A stretch of 62,149 nucleotides of DNA, the filler included, from Dugesia japonica (lineage: Eukaryota): assembly GCA_001938525.1 (NCBI GenBank). It is 6 parts of 6 records of this genome, joined end to end, with 100 filler letters (N's around TTAATTAATTAA, not from the genome) between each part and the next. Parts side by side here need not be neighbours in the genome. Positions count along the whole stretch, not along the records: positions 8,903 to 19,690 come from MQRL01593912.1; 5 more parts are not named here. One strand, written 5' to 3'. Each line of letters begins with the position of its first letter. Position 1 is the first letter of the stretch. The translations under genes and the position numbers were made by a program. This document shows positions 1-44,520 of the stretch, piece by piece. The notes beneath the pieces were generated by a model. That model saw only the letters and a list, made by a program, of their open reading frames with translations. It searched no databases and was not told where the DNA came from.

Positions 1-1349
1 GATTGAAAATGCTTTGTTTAACTTGCATTCATATTGCACTTTGCATGCAATCATAATATTAAACAAAGAACTACGAATGAAAACATGATAATAAACAATA
101 GTAACACAAATGCATCGAATAAATTGAAAAAGACACATACATACATGACAACCATGAGTATATGAACGTAAACGTTCGATAAATTTTCTTAATTTTAATA
201 TGCAACCAATAATTACATTGAACAAAGATAATGTGCTGTCCATCACTGCGGATTATGGAAAACCTACTGAATTTCTTGGAATTCAAATGAAATTTTTCAA
301 AAGACCGATAATATATTCGTTTCAAGTAAAAGTTTTTTATTTATTTTATTNNNNNNNNNNNNNNNNNNNNNNNNNNNNNNNNNNNNNNNNNNNNNNNNNN
401 NNNNNNNNNNNNNNNNNNNNNNNNNNNNNNNNNNNNNNNNNNNNNNNNNNNNNNNNNNNNNNNNNNNNNNNNNNNNNNNNNNNNNNNNNNNNNNNNNNNN
501 NNNNNNNNNNNNNNNNNNNNNNNNNNNNNNNNNNNNNNNNNNNNNNNNNNNNNNNNNNNNNNNNNNNNNNNNNNNNNNNNNNNNNNNNNNNNNNNNNNNN
601 CAACATCAACTCGAATAATAGAAAAGTTACCTCTCCTATTTGGAGAATTCGAGAGTATTATTGAATTTAATAATAAATAAATGTTGTTAATTATATATTT
701 TTTTATTTATTTCCTATAAAACAACCTTATTTTAAATTAATAACTATAAAAAACTTTACTAAAATTTAATTATAAAAAACTTAATTTAACTATAAAAACT
801 TAATTACTTTTCAAATAATTAACTTAAAAATAATAAAAAATTTATNNNNNNNNNNNNNNNNNNNNNNNNNNNNNNNNNNNNNNNNNNNNNNNNNNNNNNN
901 NNNNNNNNNNNNNNNNNNNNNNNNNNNNNNNNNNNNNNNNNNNNNNNNNNNNNNNNNNNNNNNNNNNNNNNNNNNNNNNNNNNNNNNNNNNNNNNNNNNN
1001 NNNNNNNNNNNNNNNNNNNNNNNNNNNNNNNNNNNNTAAAACGCGTTTCTTTCGAAAAAGAATCAGCGCAATAATATCTAAATTAAAATTTTAAATTAAG
1101 AATAAAAAAAAATTTTTTAATTTTACTTTTTTCTTGACCATCCGACTCTGCTGATTTGATGCAGGTCTTTCGGAAAGATTCGACTTGAATTGGATTCATT
1201 TTTTATTTAATAACAACTGATTAAGATGACAAATGTAATGTAATGTAATTTTCTAATTAACAATAATGAACCAATAAAATTCGACAAATAAAAAACAATA
1301 AAAAGATAAGAAAATAAAAGATTAAAAAAAGATTAAAAAAACTTAGAAA

Positions 1350-1751
1350 AAAAATGATGACTCATCCGGATCTAGAAAATAGTTGATCTAAAAATTTTTT
1401 TCTTTGTTTGTTTGGACTCAGAAAAAACTTTGAAAAAATGTATGAGTCATGATCTAGAAAATGTATGAGTCATGTTCTTTGTTCTCGTATCACGATGACT
1501 CATCTGTATGACTCATGGTATTTGTTCTAGTCATCGATGAATCATCGCGATTAGTCATGGTCTTTGTTTCAGCCCTCGATGAGTAAAACAGGATGAGTCA
1601 AACTGATTTAGAAAAACGATGACTCGTCGTTATGAGTCATACTTATGAGTCATCATTTTTGTCCTATCAACTGATGACTCATCTCGATGACTCATGGTCT
1701 TTGTCTCATAAGGGGGGAGGGAGTGATTCAGTGCGCTACTATCTACCTACT
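1350..1751 (-). mobile_element. Polinton/Maverick-like element terminus with subterminal TGA(C/G)TCA array
   Basis: Ends ...GTGCGCTACTATCTACCTACT (reverse complement AGTAGGTAGATAGTAGCGCAC) after a G-run; near-identical motifs at 2080, 22739 and 31234; adjacent to a Polinton penton ORF. Confidence 0.6.
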
Positions 1752-1807
1752 AAAATGGCATGGATATCAAAAACCTACTTGGATATTAGCATCACAGTTA
1801 GTTAATA

Positions 1808-2014
1808 ATGAACAACGTGAATAATTTCTTTACACTTTTACCTAGTAATAGCTGTCCTCTTATTTATCCGAATAATAATGTTAGTAAATTCATCGTTGAG
1901 CTTCAAAATCCGATTTATATGGATGATAGTTGGGAAGTAGCATTGTTGGATTTTACCTTTGTATATCAAACATTTCCATTATATAAAATAAATTATATAA
2001 ATTTGTGTTCTTAA
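1808..2014 (+). pseudogene. Polinton/adintovirus-type minor capsid (penton) protein, N-terminal fragment
   Basis: FFTLLPSNSCPLIYPNNNVSKFIVELQNPIYMDDSWEVALLDFTF matches the Polinton penton N-terminal pattern F(Y)xTLPSNS..YPxN..F...L..PI.L...WEVAL; truncated. Confidence 0.8.
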
Positions 2015-2079
2015 TAAAAGCAAAGAAAAGATAAATGCAACGAAATTAATAGAAGAATGTGATTTAGATGCATCAAGAA

Positions 2080-2400
2080 AGTAGATAGATAGTAGCGCAT
2101 AAGAACAGCACACATTAGGTAACCCCCCGTACCCTTTACGTAATCGGATTATTACATAAGTGTTTTTATATTTTTCTAATGTAAATAGGCGGCAGCACAC
2201 ATTTGTGTGCATTACATAATGTAGTTAATTTTGCCGCGACATTATTACGCAACTGTTTTTTAAATTTCTCTGTGTGTTTAGTTGGGAAAAAATTTTGCAC
2301 ACAAATTATGTCATGAGATTAATTTCATCGGTGAAATTTTACGTAATATGATTAACTGTTTTTTAATTTTTCCAATGTATTTAGTTGGAATTTTGTTTTA
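2080..2400 (+). mobile_element. Polinton-like element left terminus
   Basis: Starts AGTAGATAGATAGTAGCGCA followed by a C-run; TTAC(A/G)TAA repeats follow. Confidence 0.55.
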
Positions 2401-2965
2401 GGTTTTTTAAGCGGCAATATTTTTTAGGCTTTTTAGTTGGAAATTTATTTGGTGAGGTTGAATGAGATCAATTTTTTCAATAAACATTTTCTATTATAAT
2501 TTTAATTTAATCATTTTAACATATACATGAAATGTAAATTATTTTCAAATTACCTTTAAACATTTATTAAAAACATAATTCAATTTACCAATAATATCAT
2601 AGTTTTAATCAAAAACATATTGAAAATTAATCAATTCATCATACTTAATTTATTCAATCAATTATAGGAGATATTTTTAACTAATAATTTCAAATCTTTC
2701 ACAATTATCAATACTTAATAAAGAATTCCTATTGTAAATTAAATTTTAATTAAAGTTTTACGATAAAAATAGAACACAAATTAAAATACACATTATCTAA
2801 TTAAATTAATCAAAATTACAAGTAAAAATATAGAACAGGTTAAATAATTAAATATTTATTAAACAGTACATTTACCACTAGTTAATATTATAAATAGCGA
2901 AGGAAAACTAGTAAATGATAGAAAATGACCTAAAGAGTGAGAAAACCGTTTATAATTAATGATCA

Positions 2966-3180
2966 GTGCACTGCTAGTAGAGTTTCGATGACTGGAATCT
3001 AGTGTACTGCTAGCAGAGTTTCAATAACTGGAATCTAGTGTACTGCTAGCAGAGTTTCGATGACTGAAATCTAGTGCACAGCTATAAGAGTTTTGATGTC
3101 TGAGGACACGTTTACAGTTAGCAGAGTTTTAATGTCTGAAATTTGGTGGTCAGAGCACAGAGCTTTGATAACTGTAGACT
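2966..3180. repeat. 36-bp tandem repeat, ~6 progressively diverging units
   Basis: Units such as GTGTACTGCTAGCAGAGTTTCGATGACTGGAATCTA. Confidence 0.9.
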
Positions 3181-3299
3181 GGTGAAGAGGGTAATTTCAT
3201 CCAAATATATCTAAACAACTACTCAAAATTTATCTTACTGTATAAATTATCGTATTTTTATATTATTCGGGACTCCCAAATTAAGTACTTGTTTTTTCA

Positions 3300-4320
3300 A
3301 TACAACTTTTATCTATACGATTTGATGATTTTAGGTTAATTTATTTGTAATCAGTGTAGAATTCTCTATTAAATAGACTGGTTTTAATTAAATTTGAGAT
3401 ACTTTTTATTTTTAATTAATTATTGAGAAAACTTTTATCTTTTTCAAAGTAATTTGATTTGACAAATTTTTACCGTATATATTCTTGATCAGTAAAACAT
3501 TATCTAATAGTACTTGGATCATTAAATGTGGATGAAAATTATAAAAAATAACTTTTTATTTGTCTCGATTAAGCGTAATCGGGATTTTTAACTATGTTTT
3601 TTCTAGTTTTCTTTGGAAAATTAAGTTTGATGATTTTAGGTGATGATTTTCTTGATCAGTAATCTTTATCAAATAATGTATGTTTTGTTACGATATGAGA
3701 AGAAAATATTTTCAAAAATTGTCTAAAAACCTGGGCTTATCCCATTTTCCTTAATCCCAGACAAGATTTGATGATTTCTAACTAGATCAGTCCTAATCAG
3801 TGTAAAATTTTCAATTGAATAGACTATGTTATAATAAGATTTCAGTTACCCCTTTTAAAATTCATAATTTCCTCCCGGACTCCCAAAATGAAATACATGT
3901 TTTTTCTAAATAACTTTTATTTATAAGATTGAACGAATTTACGTTTAAATATTTGGAATCAGTAAAATTTCCTCTATCGAATAGATACCTTGTTGACCAA
4001 TTCTGAGATACTTTTTTTTATTTTTTCGAAATAGTTACGAAATCCAGAAGGATAGCTGTATATCTTTGTTATGAAGCATTTTCCCCGAGACGATATTTTA
4101 CCTTTGTACAGTCACTTTTTTCTCTTGAGTAAAATAATACCAAATTTTAAACCATATGAGTTATGTACGCAGAGAAAATTGAGCACCAAAATTCAAAATT
4201 TGAGATTTTTCACCGCAAAACCCCATTTAATTCCTCCCGGATAAATTTTGACGATTTTAGATTTACACATTTATTATCAGCGGAAAATTCTCTATCTAAT
4301 AGACATGGTTATTTTATGTA
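3300..4320. repeat. Degenerate ~150-bp repeat array
   Basis: Recurrent GATTTGATGATTTTAG...ATCAGT..AAATT.TCTAT..AATAGAC cores at ~3320, 3455, 3625, 3765, 3927, 4246. Confidence 0.65.
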
Positions 4321-4559
4321 AAAATGAGAAATAATGTTTTCGAAAAATATTTATTTGTGAAAAATAATCACCATCGAATTCTATATCGATCGACTAAAAA
4401 TATTTTCAAAAATTCTCAAAATTTCAGATGTTCACCCAGATTCCCATAAAAATTTGATTTAAAAATTTTAAAAATCTGAAAATTTAAATAAAAATGACTT
4501 AATTTCACNNATTTACCACAAAAGTTTAAAATAATTTTTAAAAACTTGAAAATTTAAAC

Positions 4560-4850
4560 TAATTTATCCTAAACTGACCAACCCGAGGAAATAATTCATC
4601 AAAACTCTTAAAAATTACTCAAACTAACCATTCCCGAGGAAATATTTGACCAAATCACCCAAAAAAAGACCAAATTGTCTAAACATTACCCAAGTTGATT
4701 AATCCCGAGAAAATATTCGAACAAATCATCCAATAATTACTCAAATTAACCATTCCTGTGGAAATATTTGACCAATTCACTCAAAAATTACTTAAACTGA
4801 GCAATCCAGTGAAAATATTGAACCAAATCTCCTAAAAATTACATAAAACC
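4560..4850. repeat. Degenerate ~55-60-bp tandem repeat
   Basis: Repeated AAACT(G/A)ACCA.TCCCGAGGAAATATTT...CAAATCAC.CAAAAATTAC. Confidence 0.7.
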
Positions 4851-5046
4851 GATAAGGGTAAAGTAATCTATTTCATTATATACACATTTACAAACCCTAT
4901 ATAAATATATCATCAAAACCCTAAAAAAATATAATAAATAAGCTAAAACAAAAAGATGAAAAAATAGAAAATAGAGGAAAGAAAAAGAAGAATAAAAGAA
5001 AAATATTATAAATTTGGTGCCAAAAAAATTTTCAAAAAAATAAATA

Positions 5047-6900
5047 CGGGTTACATTGATTGGTTCACCACTTGTGATTATTTTGTGTCTTGTCAGATGT
5101 GTGCGTCCTACAGCTCATTTACTGCCATAAAAGCATCTTCTTTACTTTCAATTATTTTCAATAACCATTGATCATGTTTAATCTTCAAATTATTTAAAGC
5201 TCTTGTCAATTGCTTTTCATTTTTAATTTGTCTCAAAATTTTACTTCAAAATTTTAAATGTAATTTTCTACTTTTTCATTAGTTTTACTGTTCGTACACT
5301 TTTCGTACAAGCCGGTATCCAAAGGTCTTCTGCATATCCAATTCTCCAGTCAGATCTGGTGTCACTTTTTCAGTTACTAAGAAAGTAACCTCTTTGCAAA
5401 GATTCATCAATTATTACTCCAGTTCTAACTTTCCCATTAATTGCAAGTGTAAAATCGTTTACAGACCAAAGTCTTTCATCACTCATTTCTAAATGTACTT
5501 CTCGTAATTTATTAAAACAACTCATAACTTTAATTCGAGCCCCTGTGTCTAAAAGACATTCAACTTTATTTCCCTGAATTGATATCGTAACACTTGGTCT
5601 GCCTTGTAATTTGGGGTAAAAGATCTTTGTTTTCTGTTCTGCTTCAATTTTTCCAACCCATTCATTTTTTCTATCATCCTCAAAATTTTCCCTCTTTAAA
5701 AACTTGTATACTTTTTCTTTAACTCTTCTGATATCATCCCACTTTTCAACCCCTTGAGGATAATTACTAACTTTATTTAGCAAGGGATGGCTCTAACCCA
5801 CTCCTCTACTGGTATAGCGCTGTCTTTTGGATACTGCCTTTCGGAATCACTTTCATATACTTCCTCATATCCATCGTTTATCCATAGTTATCTTTATCTT
5901 TATATGTAATCGCATGAATTTGATTACATTGGTTTCTTGGCCCTTTATTATTCACAAGTTTCTCGGTTGTTCTTATCATTTTAAAATTTGTGTAGCACTC
6001 TTTTATTCTATGTCCACCATTACCACATCTCACTTTTACATCTCACTTTTTGACATAACCTTCTAATATGGCCAACCTTTCTTCAATCAAAACATTTTGC
6101 TGCTTTTTTATTTGGACAATCTTGACTTATATGTCATTTTTTATGACAACTCCAACACTCTTCCACTTTTTTTGTCTGACAATTTGCTTTAGTATGACTG
6201 ATTTTATCACATGACAAACATTCAATATTTTGTTTTATTTTTCTCTGATTCACATTACTATTTACTGAATGATTTACAGGTTTTTTGTAACTCTCGCGTA
6301 TCTTCTAACTGCATCAACTCGATCTCTATTTTTCTCTACTCGATCTATTAATGTCATTGTTTCTTCAATTGCTTGTATATTCTGTCGTTTCTGCAAAGTC
6401 ACTTCTTTTTCAACGTTTGTGTTATCTGAACAATATACTAGCATCTTTGCTACCATTTTTTCTTCAGTAAAATCTTTAATTGTAAATAATCATTTTACTA
6501 AATCTTTTAAATTTTTAAAAGAAAATTGAATCTCTTCATTTTCACGCCTGTAGTAAATCAAATTTTGAAAATCTTTGATTATATCTTTCTCTTTCTCGAA
6601 TGCCATACGTAAGCAAGCCTGAAAACGTTCAACTTTTTTAAACGTCTTTGCATATTCTTCCAACAAATCTTCATCTTACAAACAGTAGTCTAAATGAATA
6701 AATTCATAAATGCAAGGATCTTCATAATATATACTTTTTAAAAACCAGTTGTGTTACCCATAAATTGAATTATTAGTTTTTGAAAGATCAGTTGCTACAG
6801 TATTAAAGCAATTTTACATTTGCACTTGAAATGGAGATTTTAACCATTCACCGTCATCATTAGGTCTTCCGATTCATACATTTTCAAGGTAGCCAAGTAT
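5047..6900 (-). mobile_element. Ty3/Gypsy retrotransposon fragment (gag zinc knuckles + aspartic protease), degenerate
   Basis: Protease motif ECLLDTGA (5370-5783); CX2CX4HX4C knuckles near 6110-6225; closely similar to 19100-19690. Confidence 0.85.
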
Positions 6901-6967
6901 CGGTCTTATTTAAGGCAAAAACAAATAAGTATTACACAATAACACATAATATCCCTAACCTTGAATA

Positions 6968-7223
6968 TTAGGTTGGTAAGAAACTAATTGCGGTTTTTAA
7001 CATATAAAGTAAAAGTAAAAATTTCGGAAAACATAAAGATATTTTATTCAAAATAAGAACAATTACAATCCATACATTTTTCCAAACGCGAAATAAGTTT
7101 ATTTATGCCAAAAGAATAGAAATCTGCTGTCCTGGATTTGTTTATTAAAACAAATGGTTCTTTTAAATAATTACTTTTAAAGTAATATTATATTAAATCA
7201 CAATTGATTTCTTACTAACCTAA
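6968..7223. mobile_element. Tc1/mariner-type MITE
   Basis: TIRs TTAGGTTGGTAAGAAACTAATTG / CAATTGATTTCTTACTAACCTAA, flanked by TA on both sides. Confidence 0.8.
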
Positions 7224-7839
7224 TAGAAAGAACAAATTATAAAGCTGCGCAAAGTTTTATAAAATTCTTGAACTTATGATCTCATGAATATCTTAAGTTG
7301 GAATTCCTCTTGTCGGATTCTATCCCAAATTGATTGTCTGAAATGATAGTAGAATTCGCATTGAAGTGCTTTAAGGAATGCAAAATATTAGTCTTTAAAT
7401 ATTGAAAATTAATATTAAGTTCAAAGTCTTTGATAGGAATGTCTCATGAACTTGTATCGTAAAAGGCACCAATTTACCACAAAAAGTTAGTCCGCACTGA
7501 ACCACACCACAGTTTTTCGATGGTATTGTCTACAATTTTTATCGGATCAAATCAAACTTGNNNNNNNNNNNNNNNNNNNNNNNNNNNNNNNNNNGTTATA
7601 CATTCCTAGTGTTTGTGAGGGGCGTATATAAAAAGTTATTAAATTTTTAAAAACTGAACTACCTCCATTTTGAAAGATATTGTTTCGAAAATATCACCAA
7701 TCTTCCTAAAATTAAAAACTACCTAAACGTCATATAAAAATTTTTTAAAAAAAATAAATGAATTTTAAAAAAAAATAAATAAAAAAATAAATAAAAAAAA
7801 AATTTTAAAAATAAATTTAAAAGAAAAAATTTTCTTAAA

Positions 7840-7983
7840 ATAGTAACTCGCCGGGGGGAGGGGGAGGTGGGTAATGGTTTAGTATGAAAAAAAATTCTGA
7901 AAAAAAATTTCTAAAAATAACTCGACGGGGTAGAGGGGGGGACCTGCTGGTTCAGTGTATTTTGTGCGCTCATATCCCATACT
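7840..7983 (-). mobile_element. Variant Polinton-like terminus with G-rich subterminal region
   Basis: Ends GTGCGCTCATATCCCATACT (rc AGTATGGGATATGAGCGCAC), same layout as the other termini (G-runs, GTGCGCT, ...TACT). Confidence 0.45.
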
Positions 7984-8802
7984 CAGACTAAATTAATTAT
8001 TAGGGGAAATTACAATTACAGACCGGAGAACGCTTTACGAATGCCGCATAACACTATTTTTCATTCTTGTCTTGATTCAAGACTCTTAAAAACCACAAAC
8101 AACTTTGAAAATGCCGCGTAATCTAAGGAATATTTTATTTTATGTAGTTAAGAGAAATTCATTAATATACTTGTTAACTGTAAAAGAGGTTCTTCTTGAT
8201 TATTCTCTGAAATAATGAAATATTACCTCAAATTTTCCGTTATTGTTGTATCTGAACAATCTATAAAATAAAACCCAGTAATTGTTGATTTTCTTGATAT
8301 AGTATTACCTGAATGTTCTCATTTGAAATCACCTAAATTAAGAAGTACACAACCGATATTTTAATTCAGTCAATGAAGAGATAAGTATGAAAAGAGTTCG
8401 GTTGAAATGGAATATAATTCTGTATTCATTTAGCAAATATCCCAAATAAATCTCTACGCCGATTAATATTGAAAACAAAGAAAAATAAATTATTTTTAGA
8501 AAGTGAAAAATTTGTAAATTTCGCTCTAAAAGCTGTAATTATTGAAAAGAATGTTCAAGTCATTCAAAATTATTGTAGACGTCAGTGAAGGAAGATATGG
8601 TCATGTATTTAATGATATAGATTTCAAAATGGGTTTATTAAAAGCTCTGAAAAAGTTCTTCTTTTCAATACAGTTTGAGAAAAAAAATTTTCGAAAAAAA
8701 TAATAATAATTTTATTCAATTGAACTGGTATTCACAGATTATACTTATTTTAAATTAAACTCGAATGCAGATAAAGGATTCTATGTTGCATTTGAATATT
8801 TG

Positions 8803-8902: not shown

Positions 8903-9157
8903 CTAAATAATAATATTTAGTTATCTCAATTCTTATTGGCTGAAATTATTAATTAATAATTATTTCCTCATAGTCTCAACTACAATTCTAATTGTACTCT
9001 AATTTTTGTAATAACTAAATTAAATTTCATTTAGTTAAAAAGTTTATAATTGAACTATAAATAACTGAATATTAATAATTTATTATTAATAAATATGCAA
9101 AAAACGATGGCAAATGTTTAATAAAAAATAATTAACGCTATTTAAAATAAAACTTTA

Positions 9158-9202
9158 TTGTTAAATATTTTGACGGATTAACAACCGTCATCATCAGACA
9201 AA
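9158..9202 (-). ncRNA. Degenerate minimal hammerhead ribozyme of a Penelope pLTR
   Basis: Minus strand TTGT-CTGATGA-T-GACGG-ttgttaat-CCGTC-AAAA(GAAA mutated)-TATTTA-ACAA; downstream of a same-strand Penelope RT fragment. Confidence 0.6.
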
Positions 9203-9365
9203 AATGAAATAAATGAGTTTATTCAGTCTGTATTATTCAAACAAAGATTAATGCGATTATACTGAATATAAGACGGCTATCATTCTTAATTTTTAAAATT
9301 TTTTAACAACTTTTCAATAAAAAATTAATTTATATAATAATATTTCATTACTTTTACCTATAAAA

Positions 9366-9596
9366 TCAAAGATGTTTTTTCAAAATATTTAATACAGAAT
9401 TTGAGATGAAATTAACAAACTCTAAACTGTCCTTACATTCAAAATTAGAATTCATTAATCGTTTCAATTTAGAATTCAAATATATCGCAATCTTATACTG
9501 AGCTGTACAAACCATAAATAAAACTGGTCGCATAGGAACTCTATTTTTATGAACTTTAGGTAAACCATATAGTTTTGCTGCTTTACATTGTAACAA
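9366..9596 (-). pseudogene. Penelope-like element reverse transcriptase fragment
   Basis: LYGLPKVHKNRVPMRPV...AQYKIAIYLNSKLK...KDSLEFV is the typical PLE RT N-terminal motif. Confidence 0.88.
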
Positions 9597-11184
9597 ATGT
9601 TGTCATTTATTATTGATTTATAGATTTATTATTTTCATTAAAAAAATAACATCAAATCACTAACTTATTCAATTAACTACAACCTGAAATTATAGTTATA
9701 CTGCATGTTAACATGTGCAATATGATTCACTAGTGAAATAAATGTGAAAATCGTATTGTGAATAATTAAATTTTTATTTGTGTAAAAATTATATCAATAA
9801 AAATAATTTGTTGTACCAGTGTTGGTACATAGCTTTTAAAAATAATATTTTATTTCATTTTTTTGTAAATTAAGTGAAATCTTTAGAGTCATTTGCGAAT
9901 GATCCTCCACCAAAAATCAATTATGGAGCATCATTAGAACCAATAAGAAAAATGAATTCCAGCGAGCCAGTTATTAAAAAACGAAAAAAAAAAATTAGAG
10001 ANNNNNNNNNNNNNNNNNNNNNNNNNNNNNNNNNNNNNNNNNNNNNNNNNNNNNNNNNNNNNNNNNNNNNNNNNNNNGAACCGTTAAACTATACAAAATC
10101 ATTGGAAAACATATCAAATAGAGTAAAAGAAATTTTTTACTGAATTTTGATTTATGAATATGAAATTATATAGCTGAAACAACTTCCGAACGGGGTAATA
10201 TCAAACAGGCATTCACCAAATCATGATCCATTTCCCATATCAAATAATCAACAATCAGTTTATGAAAATCGAAATTCTGCAATCATGATGAAGTGAGAGA
10301 AAATATTAATTAATTACAATAAAATTCAATTATAATTAAGTATTAACGAAATTCGAAAATCTGAACATGGAAATATTCAGGAAAAAGTTTCAAATAAACA
10401 GATTCAACCTAATTGGTTGACCAATGGAACGTCTCGATTTTGATAAAAAAAAAACGATCGTAAAGTCAAAAATATTGATTAATTCCAAAATCACAACAAT
10501 TAAATTAATCTTTGAACAACTCTTTTTTTGTGCAGTTTATAAAATTTTCTGATTATCAAATTTTATATCGTATATTTAGATTATTTTTCTATTATTGTCA
10601 GTTAATGTGGTATCATTACAAGTAATTAAAACAAAGAAATTGCTTTTTTAAATATTGACTTTTAATTTAATAAAAATGGCACCGACAATTGTATTTAATT
10701 TGGTTGACAACCGTTCGTAGTTATAATGCGTGAATTTGATTATTTTTAATGCACTTCAATGAACATCAACTAAAGAGTACGCTGGCCTTATTATATATTT
10801 ATTGTTAATTAATTAATTGAAATTTATCTTTACTTTTTGAGAATTTAATTGCTAAATTTACGATTATTTCTTACAATGACCATGATTTGTCGATTATTCT
10901 TTATTTCTCAATGGGAGAATATTGGAAATTTATTGTTTTATCAATTAATTTTCGTAATCTTTTTTTTATCATAAATTCATTATCTCAATTAATCTCTTAG
11001 GAAAAGGCGTTAAACTTCTCTTTATTTATTTTTAATGAAATATTCTAAATTTGAGATAAACGTAATATTTCATTTATGTTGAAACAATTAAAGTATTATA
11101 TTCATAACAATTAAAATGTGATCAAATCTAATTAAAGAATTAATTAACTAATAGACTATTAATCCCTTTATTTACTAATTGATG

Positions 11185-11423
11185 CAGTGGCGTAGCGAGG
11201 GATAATATGGATTAATCATGTCCCGAGCGCCAAACGGTCATCAAGCCAAACAAGATTTTCTGCGTCTAAAAAAATTTGAAATTTTTTTTGACAAGGGGTT
11301 TGGTAAAAGTTTGGTAACCACTGCTATATATTATATGACTATATATTTTACGAGTTTTCCGGGGGTGGGGGGCACCGAAATAGTATTGTGTCCTGTGCGC
11401 CAGTTATGCTTGCTACGCCACTA
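11185..11423. mobile_element. hAT-type MITE
   Basis: TIRs CAGTGGCGTAGC / GCTACGCCACTA; 8-bp TSD AATTGATG / AATTGACG. Confidence 0.85.
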
Positions 11424-11949
11424 AATTGACGGATTTCATAATATAATATAGTGCAGAGAATGGGAACCTTTTTATCCTTAAAGGCTACATTTAAATAAGA
11501 CCGTGATGAAGGAGACCGAATTAGTTGATATGTCGACTTATAAATGGAAATTTTATGAAATTATTACTATTTCTGTGTAGTTATACCACTTCAAGTAAAA
11601 ATAATTAAGCAGAAGTATTTTTAAATAAATTTATTATAAAGAAACACAATTGAAAACTAATAAAATTCAATTCAGTGAGATAATTATGCATTAAATCAAA
11701 TATCAATTAATACAGGAGCTAGCTTTTACGGAAGCCTCAGGTTCCCATATCTGATATAATGTTTCGAAATGTAGAATATATTGTCAATCTTAATCTTTGT
11801 AACAATTCGTGGGTCAGAAGTAGTCTCAGGTTTACAGAAATTTCAGTAAAAATAAGAAAAGAAAATATTGAAATATTTTTCATTTATATTAGTTAATATT
11901 TTAAATAAATAATATTACGTAAATATTTTTATGCCTGTTTAACGTTTTT

Positions 11950-13000
11950 GAGCGTATTATTTACATAGCAACTGAGTAATATAAAGTTTATAACGGTATT
12001 ATTTACATAGTAATCGTGTAATATAGGGTTTATTTATATAATTAAGATAAAAAATTATAGTTACCATGTTTTTTATACATAGAAACCGTGTATTATAGAG
12101 TTTATGAGTGTATTANNNNNNNNNNNNNNNNNNNNNNNNNNNNNNNNNNNNNNNNNNNNNNNNNNNNNNNNNNNNNNNNNNNNNNNNNNNNNNNNNNNNN
12201 NNNNNNNNNNNNNNNNNNNNNNNNNNNNNNNNNNNNNNNNNNNNNNNNNNNNNNNAATAAAGATTTATTAGTATAATATTTGTATATTTGCATTGTATTA
12301 TTTACTTAACAACCGTGCAGTATAAGTTTTATGAGTTTATAGGGTTTTTGAGTGTGGAAAATATTTCATATATAACTGCAAATTACTGTATAAATACCTT
12401 ATAAGTAAATATTTATATGTATCTATAAAGCTTTTGAATGTATAGGGTTTATGAGTGTGAAACAGTTTCATATATATGACCTAAAATTATTGTATAAATA
12501 CCTTATATGTAAATATTTTGATGAGTGTATAGAGATTTTGAATGTATATGGTTTATGAGTAGGGAACACTTTCATATATATATATATATATTTGTGTGTT
12601 AAAATTACTGTATAATTACTTTATAAGTAAATATTTTCATGAATATATCGAGATTTTGAGTGTATAGGGCTTATGAGTGTGAAAAACGTCATATATAACT
12701 GAAATTACTATATAAATACCTTATAAGTAAATAGTTTTATAACTGTATTATTTACATAACAATCATGTATTATTTACATAGCAAACGTGTAATATAAGGC
12801 TTATGAAGTTATTTTTACATAGTAACCATGTAATATAGGGTTTATGAGTGCAATATTTGTATATTTAAATTGTATTATTTACTTAGCAACTATGTAATGT
12901 AGGTTTTATGAGTGTATTATTTACATAAAAACCATGTTTTGTTTTCATAGAAACTGTGTAATATAAGGCTTATGAGGGTATTTTTTACATAGAATAATTT
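11950..13000. repeat. Complex tandem repeat array (TATTATTTACATAGCAAC-type short units and ~105-bp units containing GTATAAATACCTTATAAGTAAATATT)
   Basis: Units directly visible; same family recurs at 14264-14365. Confidence 0.85.
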
Positions 13001-13123
13001 GATTATCATTTCTTTATATTGATTTTTTAAAATTTATTAATTTATTACATTTTATATATTTGTTTTAACCAATCAATTAAATTAAATCCATCAAAACACA
13101 ATGTTCTTCTTAATTCATTAATT

Positions 13124-13576
13124 ATGATTACCAATATTAGTTACAGACGTGAAGTGTCGCAAGAACTAACAGAGAAAATGAGCTTTCTTACAGGCAAACC
13201 ATGACCATTTAAACTCAAAAGTGATAAATTTANNNNNNNNNNNNNNNNNNNNNNNNNNNNNNNNNNNNNNNNNNNNNNNNNNNNNNNNAAACCGCATGAT
13301 TTGAACCCTATGATATAAAAGAATTTACAATTACAATCGCTAACAATTGTCGTAAATATATGATTTTCAATAAATTTGTATAAATTAGTAAAAATAGTCA
13401 ACTGTTGGTACGAACCAGAGTTATTTCCTACTCTAAGATTTATAAAATATGACACTTTGAGTTTAAATGTGTTCTCAACAGGGAAACTAGTAATACTAAG
13501 AATTAAAAATTTGTATTTTCAGGGATATATGAATATCATTACTTCAGATTTGTTTAATTTGCTAATAAAAATTTAG
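13124..13576 (+). pseudogene. Compact divergent TATA-binding-protein-like gene (~150 codons, 3 in-frame stops, 56-N gap)
   Basis: One frame from ATG 13124: MITNISYR...LQLQSLTIVVNI*FSINLYKL...WYEPELFPTLRFIKYDTLSLNVFSTGKLVIL; YEPELFP and VFxTGKxV match the TBP core repeat (YEPELFPGL...IFVSGKVV). Confidence 0.8.
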
Positions 13577-13769
13577 ACATTTCGCTACACGGATGCACAA
13601 CATTTACAACTCAAGCACAAAAATATCAATTTAGATATTTAATTTTTAAATAATTAATATATTACGTTGTGGGTTTTGATTTCATATATAATATAATACA
13701 TTTCATTATTATTTCTTGTAATTTTAATAATGAATTCAACAATTATTGAAAATATAATGAAAATGAAAG

Positions 13770-14038
13770 ATGTTTTTGGTAAGAGAGGTTTGATTTTTAT
13801 TAAACTTTTAATTTTATTAGTAAATTTAATTTAGGAATGCTTAAAGGCATTGGAGAAACGCAGGAGGATTGACGAAGAACAATAACCAATGCTCCCCGAC
13901 TCTATTGTAAATCAGTACATAGCACCGGATTTTTGCACACCTGACTGTATCAGGTGTGCAAAGTTTAATCTGATGATTGCCATGGAGAACCATCTACCTG
14001 AATTGATCCAATATAATGACTATTTTTGTTATTATTGA
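13770..14038 (+). pseudogene. Small two-exon gene for an unknown ~70-aa protein with CxxxCxxC
   Basis: ATGTTTTTG|gtaag (13779) ... ttttag (13834)|GAA gives MFL-ECLKALEKRRRIDEEQ*PMLPDSIVNQYIAPDFCTPDCIRCAKFNLM...; AATAAA just after the stop; one in-frame stop. Confidence 0.5.
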
Positions 14039-14384
14039 TAAAAATAATAAATGTATTATTATTCAGTCTTTGATTTATTTATTTAGTTTTTTATTTAGTT
14101 GTTTTTAATAAAATTAACAAGATTTATTACGTAGAGATTTNNNNNNNNNNNNNNNNNNNNNNNNNNNNNNNNNNNNNNNNNNNNNNNNNNNNNNNNNNNN
14201 NNNNNNNNNNNNNNNNNNNNNNNNNNNNNNNNNNNNNNNNNNNNNNNNNNNNNNNNNNNNNNNAAATACTGTATAAATACCTTATAAGTAAATATTTTTA
14301 ATGAATCTATATGGTTTAAGAGTGTATTATTTGCGTAATTACCTTGTATTATTTACATAGAAATTTACATTATAAGATTTAAGA

Positions 14385-15050
14385 TTGGACCAAAGGATGC
14401 CGACATACAGTAGCCGTAAAATTTCATACTTTAATGTATACTGGACACTATTGTAGTTTACTGACACAGTAGCCGTAAAATTTCATACTTTAATGTATAC
14501 TGGACACCCATTGTGGTATACTGGACAATGAATGCCGTCACACGGTAGCTGTGAAATTTCACACTTTAACTGTGACATCTGACGTGTGAATTTTTTACCT
14601 TAATATAAACAGTAAACAATGATAACTAAGGTGTGAAAATTACACATGTGCTGTCAATTTTAACACATTAAATTAAAAATTAATTTTAATATTTTTATTA
14701 TATTTTAACCGGAGGAATTCAATTTTATTGTTTCTTAGTAGACATTTCACAGCAGAGTCATGATCATTCAGAACTTAATGTAAATTATGAATTGTTTTTT
14801 ACTCATCCCATATGCGATTTTCAAATTTACACCTGTAGTGTGATTATCACATATGAAGCGTAACCAGAGATGTGAAAAATCCATACCTTTGCTGTCAATT
14901 CTTTTTCACACTTTAAATTAAACAATTGAATTTTTTTCTTGTTTTTTAATCGCGCGAATTCAAATGTTACTGTTTTTTAGTGAATTATTACACATGAGTC
15001 TGAAACTTCCACACTTTATTATAAACTATGACTTTTACACATCTTGCATG
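14385..15050. repeat. ~60-bp tandem repeats followed by a ~240-bp diverged duplication
   Basis: GTAGCCGTAAAATTTCATACTTTAATGTATACTGGACAC twice plus a degenerate third copy; 14630-14800 resembles 14870-15040. Confidence 0.7.
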
Positions 15051-15449
15051 AAAATTATATAACGAGAAATCCATTATCAAATTATCAACTTTAAAATATA
15101 ATATTAAAAAAATCAATTAATTTAATTAAATATAATTTTTTTACATATAACAAATATCACATAATTCAATGTCTTTACAAATAGAAAATATCGGATAATA
15201 TACTGTCCTTTTCTATCTTCTCTTTCAAGATCGGAAATTCCTTTTTCTAAAAAAATATAGTGAACAAGATTTTATTTAATTCATTAAGATTTTATAATGT
15301 CCATAAGCCATGCTCATNNNNNNNNNNNNNNNNNNNNNNNNNNNNNNNNNNNNNNNNNNNNNNNNNNNNNNNNNNNNNNNNNNNNNNNNNNNNNNNNNNN
15401 NNNNNNNNNNNNNNNNNNNNNNNNNNNNNNNNNNNNNNNNNNNNNNNNN

Positions 15450-18170
15450 TTTTGTTCTTTACCATTTTCTTCATCGTCTTCATTGTATACCTTTAAATAG
15501 TTTTGATGTTGAATAGCAGTTTGCTTCAGATTAACTACTTTTGCTTTCATTGTTGTGGTAGAATCTTCCTTCTTTAAACTATAACATTTTGGTCTTAAAA
15601 ACACCAATTCCATATGGGTTTCTCTTTGGTCTTCATCCTTAAACAATCCGATTTGGTTGGCTACTTCACAATAATATAGTATATGATCTTTTGGATAATT
15701 GCTTGTGTCTAACAAACCATCTAATTTCATTTGTGCCAGGAGCTGGATTTTGTCTACTCCAGTGCAAGCAAAGAAAAATCTGTATGTATCCCCGGCAATG
15801 ATATCTATTTTACATTAAAAACGTTGACAATACATTTCCAGTTCTTGATATTGCAGCTGGTACATTCGCAGTTTACTTAGATCCAGCAACACTTGGCCAA
15901 TATAACTTGGTCGATTCAAGCAAATGTTCTCTTTATCCAGCAACACAGCTGTTAGTCCATCAGCTATATCTAACATCTTTTTAAAATGAACTTTGATAGT
16001 ACAAGTTACAAATTTCTTTTCATTATTACATAATCTAAAATTCATTCGCTTTTTCAAATTTTCCACTGTCTTATCATAAAGCGCACTATTTAAAAGCTTA
16101 TAAAATCCTATTCAAATTTAGTTTTTGATGCAACTCTTCTTGTAGAATTTGCATTGATGTAATTTACAAATATTTTAGGCGGTTTAAATTTCACTATTCT
16201 GTGAACGGTAGTTACACGAGCTCCCAGTTTTATCCTTGCTTGCACTGGAGTAGACAAAATTCAGCTCTTAGCACAAATGAAATTAGATGGTTTGTTAGAC
16301 ACAAGCAATTATCCAAAAGATCATAAACTATATTCTTGTGAAGTAGAATAAGAATATATAGCTTTAACAATTTCCAAAATATACGACATAGTGTTGTTTA
16401 GGCTTATGTGCCAACAGCAGTTTCCTCACTTTTGATCCAGGTGGGCATTTATGTTCCGGAGCTAATAGTAGCGAATCTAATGTAGCATGATTTTCTTTAG
16501 GTATTTCGAGATCAACTTCCAATAAATATCCAACATCAGAATTTTCATTTGCATATAAAATCTGTTGATAAATTTCTTCTACCTTATCTACAAATTCAAA
16601 GTCTTTAAATGCAAGTACTGTGTTAAGGCGCAACCGTATAAATTATTCGCATCTATATAAAGCAGAAAAGTCTTATCATCTGCCCGTACATAATGTCTGT
16701 TTACAAATGTCATTCCACCACGAATTCCGACTTCAAATAATTGATGCATTTTTGCATCCTGGAATAATTCTATTGACCTATCCATTGATTTGAGAGCACT
16801 TGACCAGTTCAATCCTGGTAATGAAACAAATCAAAGCAGCTCCTGCTCATGTTCTTTGAGTGCTTTTTTTCGAATTGTTTAAAATACATCAGCTAATAAA
16901 TAAATGTCTAACTTCATATAGTGCAACATATAGATTATTGCTTTTTGATTTCATCCAAGCTGACTTTGCCATTTCATATTCCTGATTTTATATTTCGGGC
17001 CATTGTTCAGGTAATTATTTTTAATTTGCTAGCATTTGATATAATGTAGCAAATTTTTATGGAAATACTCCTTTACAATGGTGTCCATTTGGAAATTCAG
17101 ACGACATTATCGGCCAACTTTCAAGAGTTGCAGTTAATGATGAGAGTGATATTTTTGTTGTTTGTGCAATCGGTTTGAGGTTCCAATGTTTGAATTTATT
17201 AAATGCATACTTAATAATATGATGTAAATCATAACCTTTGAAGTTATGAAATACAACAGGCACGTCCACCCGAATCTTGCGTAATTTATAACATTCATTG
17301 CATGCTGCTCCTATGAATTTTCCGGAAAGGTGATCATGATCACAAACCAGCGTTTTACCTCTATTCTTACACATGTAACAGTGTGTACTCTTCATAAATT
17401 TTTCTTGTTCTATTGTTGTGATAATCATGTTTTTATTCATATTTTTCTTGTACTAGTGTGCTAATTTATTTTTCACTAACTGCTCTGCAGAAATTCCACC
17501 ATTTAATTCTCGCCAGAAAACGAATAGTATTCACTTGGTTTTCTTGCATCCAGTATTGGTATTAATAGAAATCCGACAGCTATTGGAACATGTTTAACTA
17601 AACCAGTATCATCCAGTATTAGAATTGCTTCTGTATCAGCATATATCACAAATGCTGGTGTCATTCTTTTTCCATAATCCTTGAATTTCAATTCTTTCTC
17701 TTCTAGCATTGTTGTTTTCTCATTTATTTGACTACATAAAGCCATATATTGATTAAATGTAGACTGTGAATAAAATTCATGCAGATATTTTGTGAACCAT
17801 TTTCTCTGCATTCGACATTTTATTGACTGAACATGTAAATTTAACAATCTATTCAAATTTACTACACCTGTATAATGGTAATTCGAAAAATTATATCCAC
17901 ATATAGATTTTTATATAAAATTTCGTTTTTTTAAATCCTCTTTATTGATTTGTTTATTACATTTGAATACAGTTATTGCCAGGTTATTTTGTTTTTCAAA
18001 TTTCGGAATATTGATGAGCTTCGTCGGTATCTTCTACTCATCATATTTTTATTCATTTAAAAAGCATTCATTTATGTGGACGATGACGATTATTCTTGAC
18101 TACATCATATTTTAACCCTGCTAAAATACTGTACATAAAGCATTTATTATCTTTATTCTAAACATTAATG
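15450..18170 (-). pseudogene. polB: Polinton-type protein-primed family B DNA polymerase with endonuclease-VII-like Zn insertion, frameshifted
   Basis: In order: NKDNKCLMYSILA, IYADTE (ExoI), CYMC...DHDHLSGKFIGAACNEC, VFHNFKGYDLH (ExoII), IRGG, YIDANNLYG (motif A), KLLNSALYDKT (B), AGDT (C), IGLFKDE, LRPKCYS. Confidence 0.93.
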
Positions 18171-18689
18171 ATATATATATATATATATATACAGAGAGAC
18201 ATTTTCAATATTATCAATAACATTATATTATCATTATTATTTATTAAAACAATTCAATACAATTTTTAATTATCATTACTTTTTAAATTTTATTCATTAA
18301 CACTGAAAGAGAGACCACTCATTAATATTATCATTATTGTTTCCATGCTTATTACTATTATGATTACTCAGACTATTTTTAATAATTTTATACAAACAAA
18401 TATGATTATTGTTACTATTATTAATTTGTTTCAATGCTTATTAACATATTATTATTATTACTCGAATAATTATAAATAATTTTATAAAATCAAGTAAGAA
18501 TAGAAAGAGTTAAATGAACGCAGATTTATTTAATTGTGAATAAACAATAAGTGAACAAATATTAATCGTCTAGTTTTCATAATCACTCTCAAATTCTATT
18601 TTGTTTTATAATATATATATTACAAATATATTACGAAATATATTAAAAAACCATGATTAGACTACTCAAATGATTAATCCATGTCTGAA

Positions 18690-19690
18690 ATTGCGATGTA
18701 ATTGGTTTCTTCGTCGTCATCATGAAAGTCAGAGCTTAATGATCTGTTCTAAGAGTAAATCTTTTACCGAACAAGTAATGTTTGAAATGCATACAGAAAT
18801 AATAAACAGCCCATAACTCCTTTCGTGTATTGTAGTATCCCTTTTCAAGACTTGTTATTGAGTGTGATCCATTAGCAACAACTATTTCTAGTCCTTCTTT
18901 ATCAGAAAGGCTTGTCTCTTCGTTACTGCATTCAAGTGTCTTAAATCTGAACATATTCTTATGTCTTCTTTTCCTTTTTACAAACACAGATCAATGGGGT
19001 ATTCCATGGAGAGTTGCATTTCCTGGATAATATTATTCTTGAAAAGGATTTGGATATCTTCTTCAATTTTAGACTCAAAGTTTATTAGCTGTCTATACAG
19101 TTTTACATTGATTGGTTCACCACTTGTGATAATTTTGTGCCTTGTCCTACATATGCGTCCTACATCCCATTTATCTGCCATTAAAGCATCTTCTTTACTT
19201 TCAATCATTTTTAATAATCTTTGATCTTCTTTAATCTTCAAAATATTTAAGGCTCTTGTCAATCGCTCTCCTTTTATAATTTTTCTTCCAAATTTCGTTT
19301 CAATATTGCAAATGTAATTTTCGACTTTTTCATTCGTTTTGCTATCGACCTTTCGCATAAGCTGGTATCCAANNNNNNNNNNNNNNNNNNNNNNNNNNNN
19401 NNNNNNNNNNNNNNNNNNNNNNNNNNAACTAAGAAAGTAATCTCTTTGCAAACTTCATCAATTATCACTCCGGTTCTAACTTTCCTAACAATTTCAAGTG
19501 TACTATTATTTGCACAACGCAATCATTCTAACTTTACTTCTCGTAGTTTATTAAAAAAACTCAAAATCATAACTTTAATTCAAGCCCCTGTATCTAATAT
19601 AAATTCAACTTTATTTCCTTGAATTGATACCGTTACACTTGGTCTGCCTTGCAATTTATGGTAAGAAATATTTGTTTTTTTTTCTGATTC
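18690..19690 (-). mobile_element. Ty3/Gypsy fragment (protease, RT start, RNase H) with internal deletion
   Basis: LDTGA; KELWAVYYFCMHFKHYLFGKRFTLRTDH; same family as 5047-6900. Confidence 0.85.
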
Positions 19691-43043: not shown

Positions 43044-43281
43044 CATTACGGGTATCCGTGTATTTAAATATGCCACAAAATAAAATGTTGTAATCCCTAC
43101 TTTTCNNNNNNNNNNNNNNNNNNNNNNNNNNNNNNNNNNNNNNNNNNNNNNNNNNNNNNNNNNNNNNNNNNNNNNNNNNNNNNNNNNNNNNNNNNNNNNN
43201 NNNNNNNNNNNNNNNNNNNNNNNNNNNNNNNNNNNNNNNNNNNNNNNNNNNNNNNNNNNNNNNNNNNNNNNNNNNNNNNNA

Positions 43282-43509
43282 GTTGTTGAACGCATTCAAG
43301 CTTTTGGTGAACGACAGCGATACCAGACGTGGACGGGCCCAGATCGCACTCTAGTGACCCCATTCAATCACCAACCTCCTACTCCTCTCCCCGCTCCCGC
43401 GGTACAAGCCTTCATAAATAATCTTCTCTGGGGAGTAAGGAAACCCACAGGGGTGGCAGATGTTGAAAATGCACCCCCTAATATTGCCAGTGATAATAAC
43501 ACTCCCTGA
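43282..43509 (+). CDS. Pro-rich unknown protein, 5' end in gap (cassette ORF 2; not in supplied track)
   Basis: Open frame VVERIQAFGERQRYQTW...HQPPTPLPAPAVQAF...NNTP*; AATAAA at 43528. Confidence 0.45.
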   Translation, partial: VVERIQAFGERQRYQTWTGPDRTLVTPFNHQPPTPLPAPAVQAFINNLLWGVRKPTGVADVENAPPNIASDNNTP

Positions 43510-43662
43510 ATTTTTGTCTGTAGTAATAATAAATGCTTAGGCTATTGAATTAATGAATAGTTGTGATTCTTACTACTTAATTAAATGAGAAAAGATTTCG
43601 TTTAGTAATAACCATATTATCAGACCTTGTAGTNNTTGTAATAATTACCATATTCTTTTTAG

Positions 43663-44021
43663 TGCATTCGTCCTTGAACAAATCACAGGCCCCACGTAAA
43701 AAGTTGCGAGAGACCAGTGAAGACATTGACCTCACGTGGGATCTTTATAAACTAGCTAAGAGGCGATGGGAAGCGGAGACCGCTGAGGCCGAGGCTAAGG
43801 TGAAACGCTATAAGCGAAAATGTCTAACTTTTAAAGCGGAGATGGACGCCACCCAGAATCAAGAGAGGGTGTGGAAATCCCAAGTCGAAACTTTCGCCAC
43901 GGTTATTAAATCATACCAAGAACGTGAGAACCAGCTCGTCGAGAACATAGTGAAGTTGCGAGCCACTATTCCATTAGCCCTACTCTTGATTGATAAAGGT
44001 ACTCAGACTAATCGCTCCTGA
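43663..44021 (+). CDS. Coiled-coil protein with basic NLS-like stretch and C-terminal DKGTQT (cassette ORF 3)
   Basis: Intact 119-codon frame after acceptor TTCTTTTTAG|TG; AATAAA at 44051. Confidence 0.6.
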
Positions 44022-44137
44022 GTTATCATATCTACGATTTTGTTGCTTTTAATAAATTATTTAATTTGTATCTTTTCTAATTTGTTTCTCCAATTTCGAA
44101 TTTGAGTCTTGTCAACTTAACTATAATTTTGATTTAG

Positions 44138-44520
44138 TGACACGAATTAATTTTCCCAACAGCATCCGAAGGTGCCATCGCATATTGAGACGTCTTCTTA
44201 CTGAGAGACACTTGAAACGTAAGGCAGATAAGGCTATTTTAAAACATCTGGCCCAACGGGACCAGCTTATAAAGCGATTAGATTTAGTAGTTCGCAAACA
44301 GAACGACTTGGCGATTCAAACCAAAGCCTTAGAGGCCGATAATAGGAAGTTGTTATTTCGAAAAATAGACTTCCTGAAACAATATATCACCGATCTCTCA
44401 CGACAAATAAGCAATCCAACTATAATTCAATGGGACGATAATGACGATATCGCTGCCTTTAACTTTTCGGTAACCGACCCGGATCAGTGGTTAGATCCAG
44501 GGGCACTGGAATTACTATAA
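44138..44520 (+). CDS. Basic/leucine-zipper-like protein with acidic tail (cassette ORF 4)
   Basis: Intact 127-codon frame after acceptor TTTTGATTTAG|TG; AATAAA at 44541. Confidence 0.6.

Follow-up and report, generated by a model that had tools for sequence, protein, structure and literature searches.

The window analysed here is the whole stretch of 62,149 nucleotides of Dugesia japonica DNA (assembly GCA_001938525.1; six parts joined by filler), and on the part from MQRL01593912.1 it contains a small TBP-like gene facing a broken protein-primed DNA polymerase (pPolB) gene. The locus raises the question of whether a Polinton-type element has brought its own TATA-binding protein (TBP) into this genome, and what such a protein would do. 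An earlier note had proposed an endogenous pPolB virus or transposon lineage encoding its own TBP, and the proposal is supported; relatives of the gene are found inside Polintons/adintoviruses. We consider it rather probable that the locus is a decayed endogenous copy of such a lineage with a TBP of 150 residues (mini-TBP), and that in the intact elements this protein likely binds the motif ATAAAC in front of capsid, packaging and integrase genes and there, by prediction, brings in host TFIIB and RNA polymerase II (Pol II).

The locus in the window

Table 1. Features of the mini-TBP locus and related pieces in the window.
Feature	Position	Strand	Remarks
Second Polinton relic, integrase C-terminus then directly penton N-terminus	1744..1966	+	matches L059
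AT-rich satellite array upstream of TBP	11954..12991		periods 22/42/64/104 bp
Mini-TBP pseudogene, Polinton-borne family	13124..13576	+	three premature stops in 150 codons; 13233-13288 is an N gap
Small broken ORF downstream of TBP	13730..14038	+	Cys cluster, 2 internal stops; depth 6,000-16,000
Second satellite copy, direct orientation, 3' of TBP and small ORF	14264..14370		self-blastn 71-84%
Spacer	14392..15275		59-bp tandem repeat and repeated TGTGAAA-type blocks
Broken protein-primed PolB, EndoVII/HNH-type insert	~18166 to 15276	-	stops, frameshifts, N gap 15318-15449
Inverted duplicate of 15661-15782, inside pPolB	16225..16346		122 nt, 93% complementary

The TBP gene is intronless, carries the TBP core motifs quoted earlier, and matches the Pfam TBP family PF00352 over residues 69–128 of its translation (E 1e-7, 32.1 bits, cut-off 22.9). 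Both it and pPolB are interrupted by stops, as had been noted, those of TBP being at codons 27, 65 and 80 (read as X). It shows 55% identity over 99% to an intact relative, P0002, and in the quick tree it groups with P0002 and P0003 (97, starred) on a long end branch (0.38 versus 0.06–0.16), deviating at 7 of the 26 readable columns that are at least 90% conserved across the family. The 56-N gap inside the gene, which the earlier note does not mention, conceals part of repeat 1, with the register to intact relatives maintained across it, and the shortened first repeat claimed before is therefore established by the intact relatives and not by the window copy alone.

The gene is bracketed by two satellite stretches in direct orientation. 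The 104-bp units of the upstream array contain 3 canonical TATAAATA, and there are 4 of these in 1.0 kb of satellite versus 13 in 58.8 kb, which tandem copying alone could account for. Compared with 64 TBP loci, the satellite gave no clear match, with one 24-nt match only, and the small ORF had no match there or in Pfam.

The polymerase is convergent with the TBP gene as described, at a spacing of 1.7 kb instead of ~1.9 kb because its C-terminus extends beyond the 15318–15449 gap, and its 5' end is truncated at a (TA)n tract. In tblastn it matches pPolBs of the TBP-bearing loci down to E 4e-118, and these relatives score PF03175; the EndoVII-type insert is recognized by PF02945 (E 3e-5). When 50 pPolB ORFs are compared, of which TBP-bearing loci contributed 8, the best matches for all six uninterrupted window segments are L059 and L041. 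The inverted duplicate is a decay mark of the window copy, and contigs omitting it are present in both DNA runs. The second relic, on the TBP strand and 11 kb upstream of TBP, matches L059 in tblastn (penton, E 6e-13; integrase, E 7e-4) and also in tblastx. No MCP, ATPase or protease was found in the window, where the copy is decayed and gapped, and there is no credible pair of terminal inverted repeats within 9000–19500; the ends of the element are probably lost.

Summed contig depth over gap-free TBP bins is 43,000–168,000 in X1 and 73,000–124,000 in X4, versus 1,400–8,100 and 700–4,800 over pPolB, and with the reservation that summed unitig depth is not copy number, the TBP-satellite cassette looks more than 10-fold more abundant than pPolB in this host. 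The downstream satellite is likewise very high (~87,000 in X1, ~76,000 in X4), and the spacer has a pPolB-like, not TBP-like, depth in most bins. Amplification of a non-autonomous cassette of TBP plus satellite, to levels well above those of the polymerase, is probable. With such depths many local copies are probably not beside pPolB, and the window TBP and pPolB may not belong to one copy. The cassette and the pPolB fragment could then have inserted separately, both from one Polinton lineage, and be adjacent by chance or joined by the scaffolder: the N gap 14141–14263 and satellite lie between them, and among the contigs listed none bridges the TBP-to-pPolB stretch. This is a possible but unlikely reading of the locus, given that the depth contrast is no count of copies, that the window pPolB is nearest to TBP-bearing elements, and that the convergent layout recurs in L041, L059 and L060 (spacing 2.3 kb in L060). 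The physical unity of the two pieces is likely.

A TBP gene family in Polintons, under purifying selection

A family search gave 878 proteins at E≤1e-5, a count that includes cellular TBPs, and the median length of 120 aligned family members is 151 aa. The family is under purifying selection; the dN/dS check suggested earlier gave a median of 0.235 across 54 pairs. A core gene (pPolB, ATPase, integrase, protease, MCP or penton) is present in 36 of the 64 TBP loci, and in 18 of the 21 metagenomic ones of 4 kb or more. Loci L010, L034, L041 and L059 each have pPolB, ATPase, integrase, MCP and a penton assigned by position and size only, and a protease was found in six other loci. The expected linkage of relatives to pPolB is thus found, inside pPolB/ATPase/integrase/capsid elements, the local copies in this host being probably often unlinked. 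No family members were found in IMG/VR.

Of the TBP neighbours without an assigned family, the most frequent one folds like a T7 gp2.5/Enc34-type SSB (Z 8.3) and not like a transcription factor. It contains an in-frame GT-AG intron of 43–46 nt in nine of nine loci, counted here toward nuclear Pol II transcription. Pfam detected no viral TFIIB and no RNA polymerase among 93 ORFs of the loci, several neighbours being without family.

The model of P0002 (pLDDT 95.7) shows the full two-lobe TBP saddle; residues 1–149 align with residues 66–240 of yeast TBP (Z 13.4, rmsd 2.7), and a structure search with the model gave TMq 0.68–0.77 for TBP rows. The check by profile and fold thus came out for TBP, with the Pfam match of the window copy and the predicted saddle of the intact relative. 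The N-lobe is ~26 residues shorter than in cellular TBP, with H1 shortened and the regulatory helix H2 absent in the 150-aa clade, where in the P0002 model strand 45–51 leads to strand 66–78 with only a 3-residue turn; a clade of 165–180 aa retains short versions of H1 and H2. The family alignment has gaps at K138 and K145, presumably the lysines of the basic helix H2. The Trp of TBPL1 at the N-lobe Phe position, which we take to correspond to F116, is absent from the family. In PMC7221094 this Trp is described for TBPL1, and the acidic C-lobe stirrup glutamates are given as the TFIIB contact.

Among the yeast DNA-contact positions listed in Table 1 of PMC12529657, F116 (120/120), F190 (119/120), F207 (120/120), N69 and P191 are retained, and V71, F99, V122, T124, N159, V161, L205 and T215 are replaced by mostly near-invariant and mostly polar residues. 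One of the four DNA-kinking Phe is lost, as F99 is Pro in 118 of 120 sequences, and the YEPE stirrup glutamates are kept (E186 117/120, E188 120/120).

A motif restricted to core genes of TBP-bearing elements

The top de novo hexamer of the TBP-bearing loci is ATAAAC, which lies on the sense strand upstream of 56 of 60 core genes and on the antisense strand of one (ATPase 21/21, MCP 8/8, penton 10/10, integrase 9/11, protease 4/5, core 4/5). It is often ~35 nt before the start codon, with a peak at 33–38 nt before the ATG. The background is 5.6%, and the motif precedes 3 of 48 TBP genes, 2 of 15 SSB genes, 14 of 46 ORFs that fell in no cluster, and, in one unknown family, 6 of 9 genes. A poly(A) signal was rejected, the preceding base being A in 2 of 51 sites.

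In control loci without a TBP match ATAAAC precedes 4 of 63 genes (background 4.5%), among them 0 of 12 genes of the same virion-module class. No TBP match was obtained in any of the 75 control loci, which had been chosen by their pPolB or ATPase. In part they are truncated, they were drawn from other collections, and many probably belong to non-animal hosts, so absence of TBP may not hold for each. Direct searching for further Polintons of this kind yielded two distant ATPase loci, with nothing from the MCP and pPolB alignments or from the ATPase alignment in genome contigs; the controls came from a pPolB motif scan. L137, a near-complete Polinton of the same class that is motif-free, had no TBP match in its genome, four viral records having been searched only in part. 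On the ATPase tree TBP and motif co-vary in one (starred) to two independent contrasts, so common descent by itself could account for the link, which the Fisher p of 4e-25 overstates. The occurrence of ATAAAC before core genes of TBP-bearing elements is a new observation. Since the relatives encode both a TBP and a shared motif before capsid and packaging genes, the element likely steers host RNA polymerase with its own factor.

Proposed role and comparison with known systems

In the best model mini-TBP would be a viral late-promoter factor recruiting host Pol II, analogous to ORF24 of herpesviruses. The early genes (mini-TBP and SSB) would be transcribed first in the nucleus by host TBP from ordinary TATA promoters. 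The polar DNA face of mini-TBP might then read YATAAACR, with the 5' half contacted by the C-lobe, which is close to intact, and the 3' half by the altered N-lobe, while the acidic stirrup would recruit host TFIIB and the loss of the N-lobe helix would release the protein from control by TFIIA, TAF1, Brf and Mot1. Of the two roles offered in the earlier note, driving the element's own promoters is now backed by ATAAAC, and competition with host TBP has no evidence of its own. For the broadest form of the model the chances seem to us evenly balanced: a widespread animal Polinton lineage would switch on late transcription with a single protein. This protein, a naturally minimal TBP of 150 aa, would have been reprogrammed to YATAAACR and have lost the host-regulator surface, and would hijack host TFIIB and Pol II, an independent invention of the herpesvirus late-promoter strategy. 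In this host the TBP cassette would also have been amplified well beyond virus copies, so that the genome carries a load of genes for a reprogrammed general transcription factor.

The motif could instead be read by a host factor, mini-TBP acting otherwise. ATAAACA fits the Forkhead consensus, RYAAAYA, and canonical TATA is one step away from TATAAAC, host TBP or TRF2 on a variant TATA box being the other candidate readers; the few independent contrasts also leave room for this. We nevertheless hold it to be rather improbable, as the motif is nearly strictly sense-strand with a core-promoter-like peak, has C as first base at ~40% of sites (21/51), and is at background in elements where no TBP was found, and as a host factor gives no reason why the DNA face of TBP should be rewired in a near-invariant way. 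That mini-TBP is mainly a decoy, which dampens host transcription by tying up host TFIIB or by sitting on host promoters, is more doubtful still: the TFIIB-binding glutamates are retained, the regulatory helix is gone and one kinking Phe is lost, but a decoy has no need for a conserved, altered DNA face and does not explain an element-wide motif. An origin of the gene from host TBP or a TRF paralogue, as a processed pseudogene, is very improbable, although the window copy is intronless and decayed. In the tree, a quick version in which no animal TBP or TRF2 was identifiable and the host's own are absent, 62 family rows lie on one side of a branch (97, starred) and 32 full-length TBPs, among them eukaryotic and archaeal ones, on the other, and the gene thus stays apart from the sampled cellular proteins; L001, the sole giant-virus-like TBP, clusters with the eukaryotic ones. 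The identity to solved cellular TBPs is 18–25%, and the intact relatives are under purifying selection and sited among viral genes.

If mini-TBP acts at late promoters as proposed, the cognate TBP-promoter pair would be a mechanism for timing virion genes in the RNA-polymerase-less Polintons, of which no description was found in the literature searched. Such a pair would argue for Polintons as autonomous nuclear viruses rather than helper-dependent ones, the ATAAAC promoter would be a simple reporter of late-phase activity, and mini-TBP, as a natural compact TBP with altered DNA specificity and without the control surface of the N-lobe, would be a tool for studying how TBP works.

The TBP-bearing loci share with Polintons/Mavericks, that is adintoviruses (Starrett et al. 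2021, PMC8502044; Jeong et al. 2023, PMC10748475), the pPolB with nuclease insert, rve integrase, A32-like ATPase and adenain protease, and likewise the DJR-like MCP, penton, pX/core-like and PLA2 genes. A conserved TBP gene with a dedicated upstream motif is not described in the texts searched. A figure legend in PMC8502044 has a TBP label on MELD viruses with adintovirus-like PolB, and the accessible part of its supplement gave no match to TBP or TATA. Beyond this legend no description of the Polinton TBP family or of the motif was found in the open-access article texts searched.

The herpesvirus vTBPs (KSHV ORF24, EBV BcRF1), which act at TATTWAA late promoters, also belong to nuclear viruses without RNA polymerase, and have in common with mini-TBP the TBP fold, a polar DNA face with V122, V161 and L205 replaced, and a short non-canonical motif before structural genes (PMC12529657). 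ORF24, however, is a multidomain protein of 752 aa with all four Phe and no TFIIB glutamates, binds Pol II directly and requires five partners (PMC12529657), whereas mini-TBP is a bare core of 145–180 aa with three Phe and both glutamates, for which no partner was found. A search of longer proteins gave one match, with canonical TBP motifs; at a median of 151 aa the family is unlike ORF24, BcRF1 and UL87, large multidomain proteins with a Pol II-binding N-terminus and partner vTAs. The likeness would thus be one of working only, and the two origins are probably independent. With cellular TBP, TBPL1/TRF2 and archaeal TBP (PF00352) mini-TBP shares the two-lobe saddle, the YEPE stirrup and three kinking Phe; relative to cellular TBP it differs in the Pro for F99, in eight other DNA-facing positions and in the shorter N-lobe. 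According to Ravarani et al. 2020 (PMC7221094), the TBP homologues of NCLDV and mirusviruses are, like mini-TBP, virus-encoded with a degenerate N-lobe regulatory surface, but they are usually accompanied by a viral TFIIB, unlike the Polinton loci by Pfam, and their stirrup varies (~40% conserved), versus 97–100% conservation in the mini-TBP family.

Polinton loci that carry a TATA-binding protein

The earlier note had proposed a lineage of pPolB (protein-primed family B DNA polymerase) elements encoding its own TATA-binding protein (TBP). That lineage is real: of the 64 TBP-bearing metagenome loci obtained with a family-specific pattern, core Polinton genes are present in 6 of 22 below 2 kb, 12 of 21 at 2–4 kb and 18 of 21 of at least 4 kb. 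The locus genes identified are the rve integrase, adenain, PLA2, the PF03175 pPolB (in 7 of the 64 loci) and a DJR-like MCP, with a weak match to the A32 ATPase. A T7 gp2.5/Enc34-like SSB gene lies upstream of TBP in L003, L022, L023, L035, L041, L057, L062, L065 and L066, and in all nine it is split by a conserved in-frame GT-AG intron of 43–46 nt and spliceosomal type, which points to nuclear transcription by Pol II; in L059 the family member is a single ORF of 189 aa. Accessory genes of TBP-bearing Polintons include a dual-specificity phosphatase, an E2 ubiquitin-conjugating enzyme, RING fingers, an LRR protein and a KilA-N/C2H2 protein.

The existence of a Polinton-borne TBP family is near certain. 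The window protein, read with X at its stops, matches intact relatives of 147–153 aa over the full length with up to 55% identity, and the second half of the frame matches Pfam TBP (E 1e-7), confirming the stop-bearing TBP-like gene described previously. A profile search gave 878 proteins at E<=1e-5, cellular TBPs included, and most of the best 120 of these are ~145–165 aa long. The median dN/dS is 0.235 (54 unsaturated pairs, 43 locus ORFs). The AlphaFold model of P0002, an intact relative, built from a 120-row alignment (pLDDT 95.7), is a full saddle in whose N-lobe H1 is short and H2 missing; it aligns with yeast TBP 66–240 over 149 residues (Z 13.4, rmsd 2.7; Foldseek E 3e-9).

A candidate late promoter and its proposed reader

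Regions upstream of the locus genes were inspected and hexamers then ranked de novo, giving ATAAAC with the consensus YATAAACR. Among 60 dereplicated core genes, 56 have it on the sense strand within 100 nt upstream (antisense 1), often 33–38 nt from the ATG. Of the TBP genes 3 of 48 have it in front, as do 2 of 15 SSB-like genes, against a background of 5.6%; ordinary TATA boxes are found at 23 of the 48 TBP genes. The 75 control loci, picked by ATPase or by a pPolB motif, gave no TBP match, and ATAAAC precedes 4 of their 63 genes (background 4.5%) and none of 12 genes in the five with the same virion-module class. Since the ATPase tree offers only one or two independent contrasts, and many of the control loci are either short or likely to come from non-animal hosts, the link between TBP and motif is a correlation and not established co-evolution.

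Early genes would be expressed by host TBP, and the mini-TBP would bind YATAAACR, bring in host TFIIB and Pol II, evade N-lobe regulators and in this way switch on the virion genes, a reading that we regard as rather probable. That a host factor reads the motif is unlikely, and a decoy role of the mini-TBP is less likely still. The DNA-contact positions of yeast TBP (PMC12529657, Table 1) were mapped via canonical TBP, with letters agreeing at every site. Among 120 family members N69, F116, F190, F207 and P191 are kept, and the replacements are V71 by Asn (117), F99 by Pro (118), V122 by Arg and T124 by Met (120 each), N159 by Ser (118), V161 by Thr/Ser (119), L205 by Asn (120) and T215 by Leu/Met (103). 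The two TFIIB-binding glutamates are retained in 117 and 120 of the 120. No TFIIB was found in 93 scanned ORFs of the 344 called in the loci, the others being mostly short singletons or additional representatives of families already covered by the scan. According to PMC7221094, the N-lobe surface of TBP is common to TFIIA, Mot1, Brf1/2 and TAF1, and the majority of viral TBPs vary at the stirrup and have a TFIIB of their own. KSHV ORF24, as described in PMC12529657, would be the functional analogue of the mini-TBP.

This Polinton lineage, which encodes a reprogrammed TBP and has a candidate late promoter, is real. The accessible portions of PMC10748475, PMC11131425, PMC11296320, PMC11161782, PMC8097293 and 10.64898/2026.10.13.758929 contain no mention of TBP or TATA, and in that of PMC12220804 the one TATA match listed is in an author name.

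Two observations concern other pPolB contigs. In L137 (9977-14203) the Polinton penton gene has grown to 1408 aa through large internal insertions, and this element has no TBP match and no ATAAAC motif. Dozens of pPolB-bearing contigs (L087–L142), mostly Polinton-like, lie within prokaryotic MAGs and are probably eukaryotic or viral contaminants.

Origin and state of the window copy

A quick tree was built from 94 rows, none of them identifiable as an animal TBP or TRF2. On it, 62 family rows fall on one side of a branch (97*) from eukaryotic, archaeal and other full-length TBPs, and the window copy sits on a long end branch inside the most reduced subclade; a host retrocopy as the source of the TBP gene is scarcely credible. 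Eight divergent full-length TBPs of 164–192 aa (P0122, P0126, P0133, P0140, P0150, P0157, P0160 and P0164) group with neither the Polinton, the eukaryotic nor the archaeal TBPs and possibly come from other viruses. For all 6 segments of the window pPolB the nearest counterparts are those of L059 and L041, two TBP-bearing loci in which TBP and pPolB are convergent, so the window pair is of one lineage; that the two pieces are distinct insertions is possible but doubtful. Convergence in the window, as the earlier note had it, stands, and the spacing of ~1.9 kb is corrected to 1.7 kb; in L060 the two genes are 2.3 kb apart.

Coordinates of window features and of accessory genes in TBP-bearing loci
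Feature	Position	Strand	Remarks
TBP frame	13124-13576	+	3 premature stops and a 56-N gap
Broken pPolB	~18166 to 15276	-	EndoVII-type insert
Second Polinton relic	1744-1966	+	integrase end, then directly penton start; upstream cut by GATGACTCA-rich repeat, ~1435-1700
Accessory gene	L057:986-1294		
Accessory gene	L059:12052-12546		
Accessory gene	L014:5020-5478		
Accessory gene	L034:477-1055		
Accessory gene	L060:1918-3330		
Accessory gene	L028:603-1739		

The window copy is dead. The window is AT-rich, with numerous N gaps and, by reading of its ORFs, abundant gypsy-like debris, and has the look of a draft animal assembly; its pPolB contains a 122-nt inverted duplicate specific to this copy. 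The second relic shares its strand with TBP and so may mark the distant end of one interrupted element that includes both. Related gypsy-like fragments (80–84% identical) lie at 5051-5645 and 19103-19690, the latter just past the truncated 5' end of pPolB, and a run of GC-richer coiled-coil-like ORFs at 43281-44520 (+) has no convincing Pfam match.

TBP and a small ORF of no assigned family are flanked by two satellite copies in direct orientation. In two DNA runs from one organism (X1 and X4), summed contig depth, which is inflated by overlapping unitigs and gives no copy number, was 43,000–168,000 and 73,000–124,000 for TBP bins free of gaps, some 87,000 and 76,000 for the satellite, and 1,400–8,100 and 700–4,800 for pPolB. 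Individual listed contigs have depths of 3–42, and none of them spans the TBP-to-pPolB stretch. The direction is nonetheless the same in both runs: a TBP-satellite cassette seems to exceed pPolB more than 10-fold in this host, where the whole satellite-TBP-small ORF-satellite unit (11954-14370) looks strongly amplified. In an oligo-dT RNA run 523 of 13.6 million records matched, mostly from other copies since 380 are less than 90% alike; a second run gave 48 reads. Assuming standard library strandedness, the RNA leans sense for TBP (about 20 against 4–13) and for pPolB (11 of 16 bins), a weak signal at a low level.
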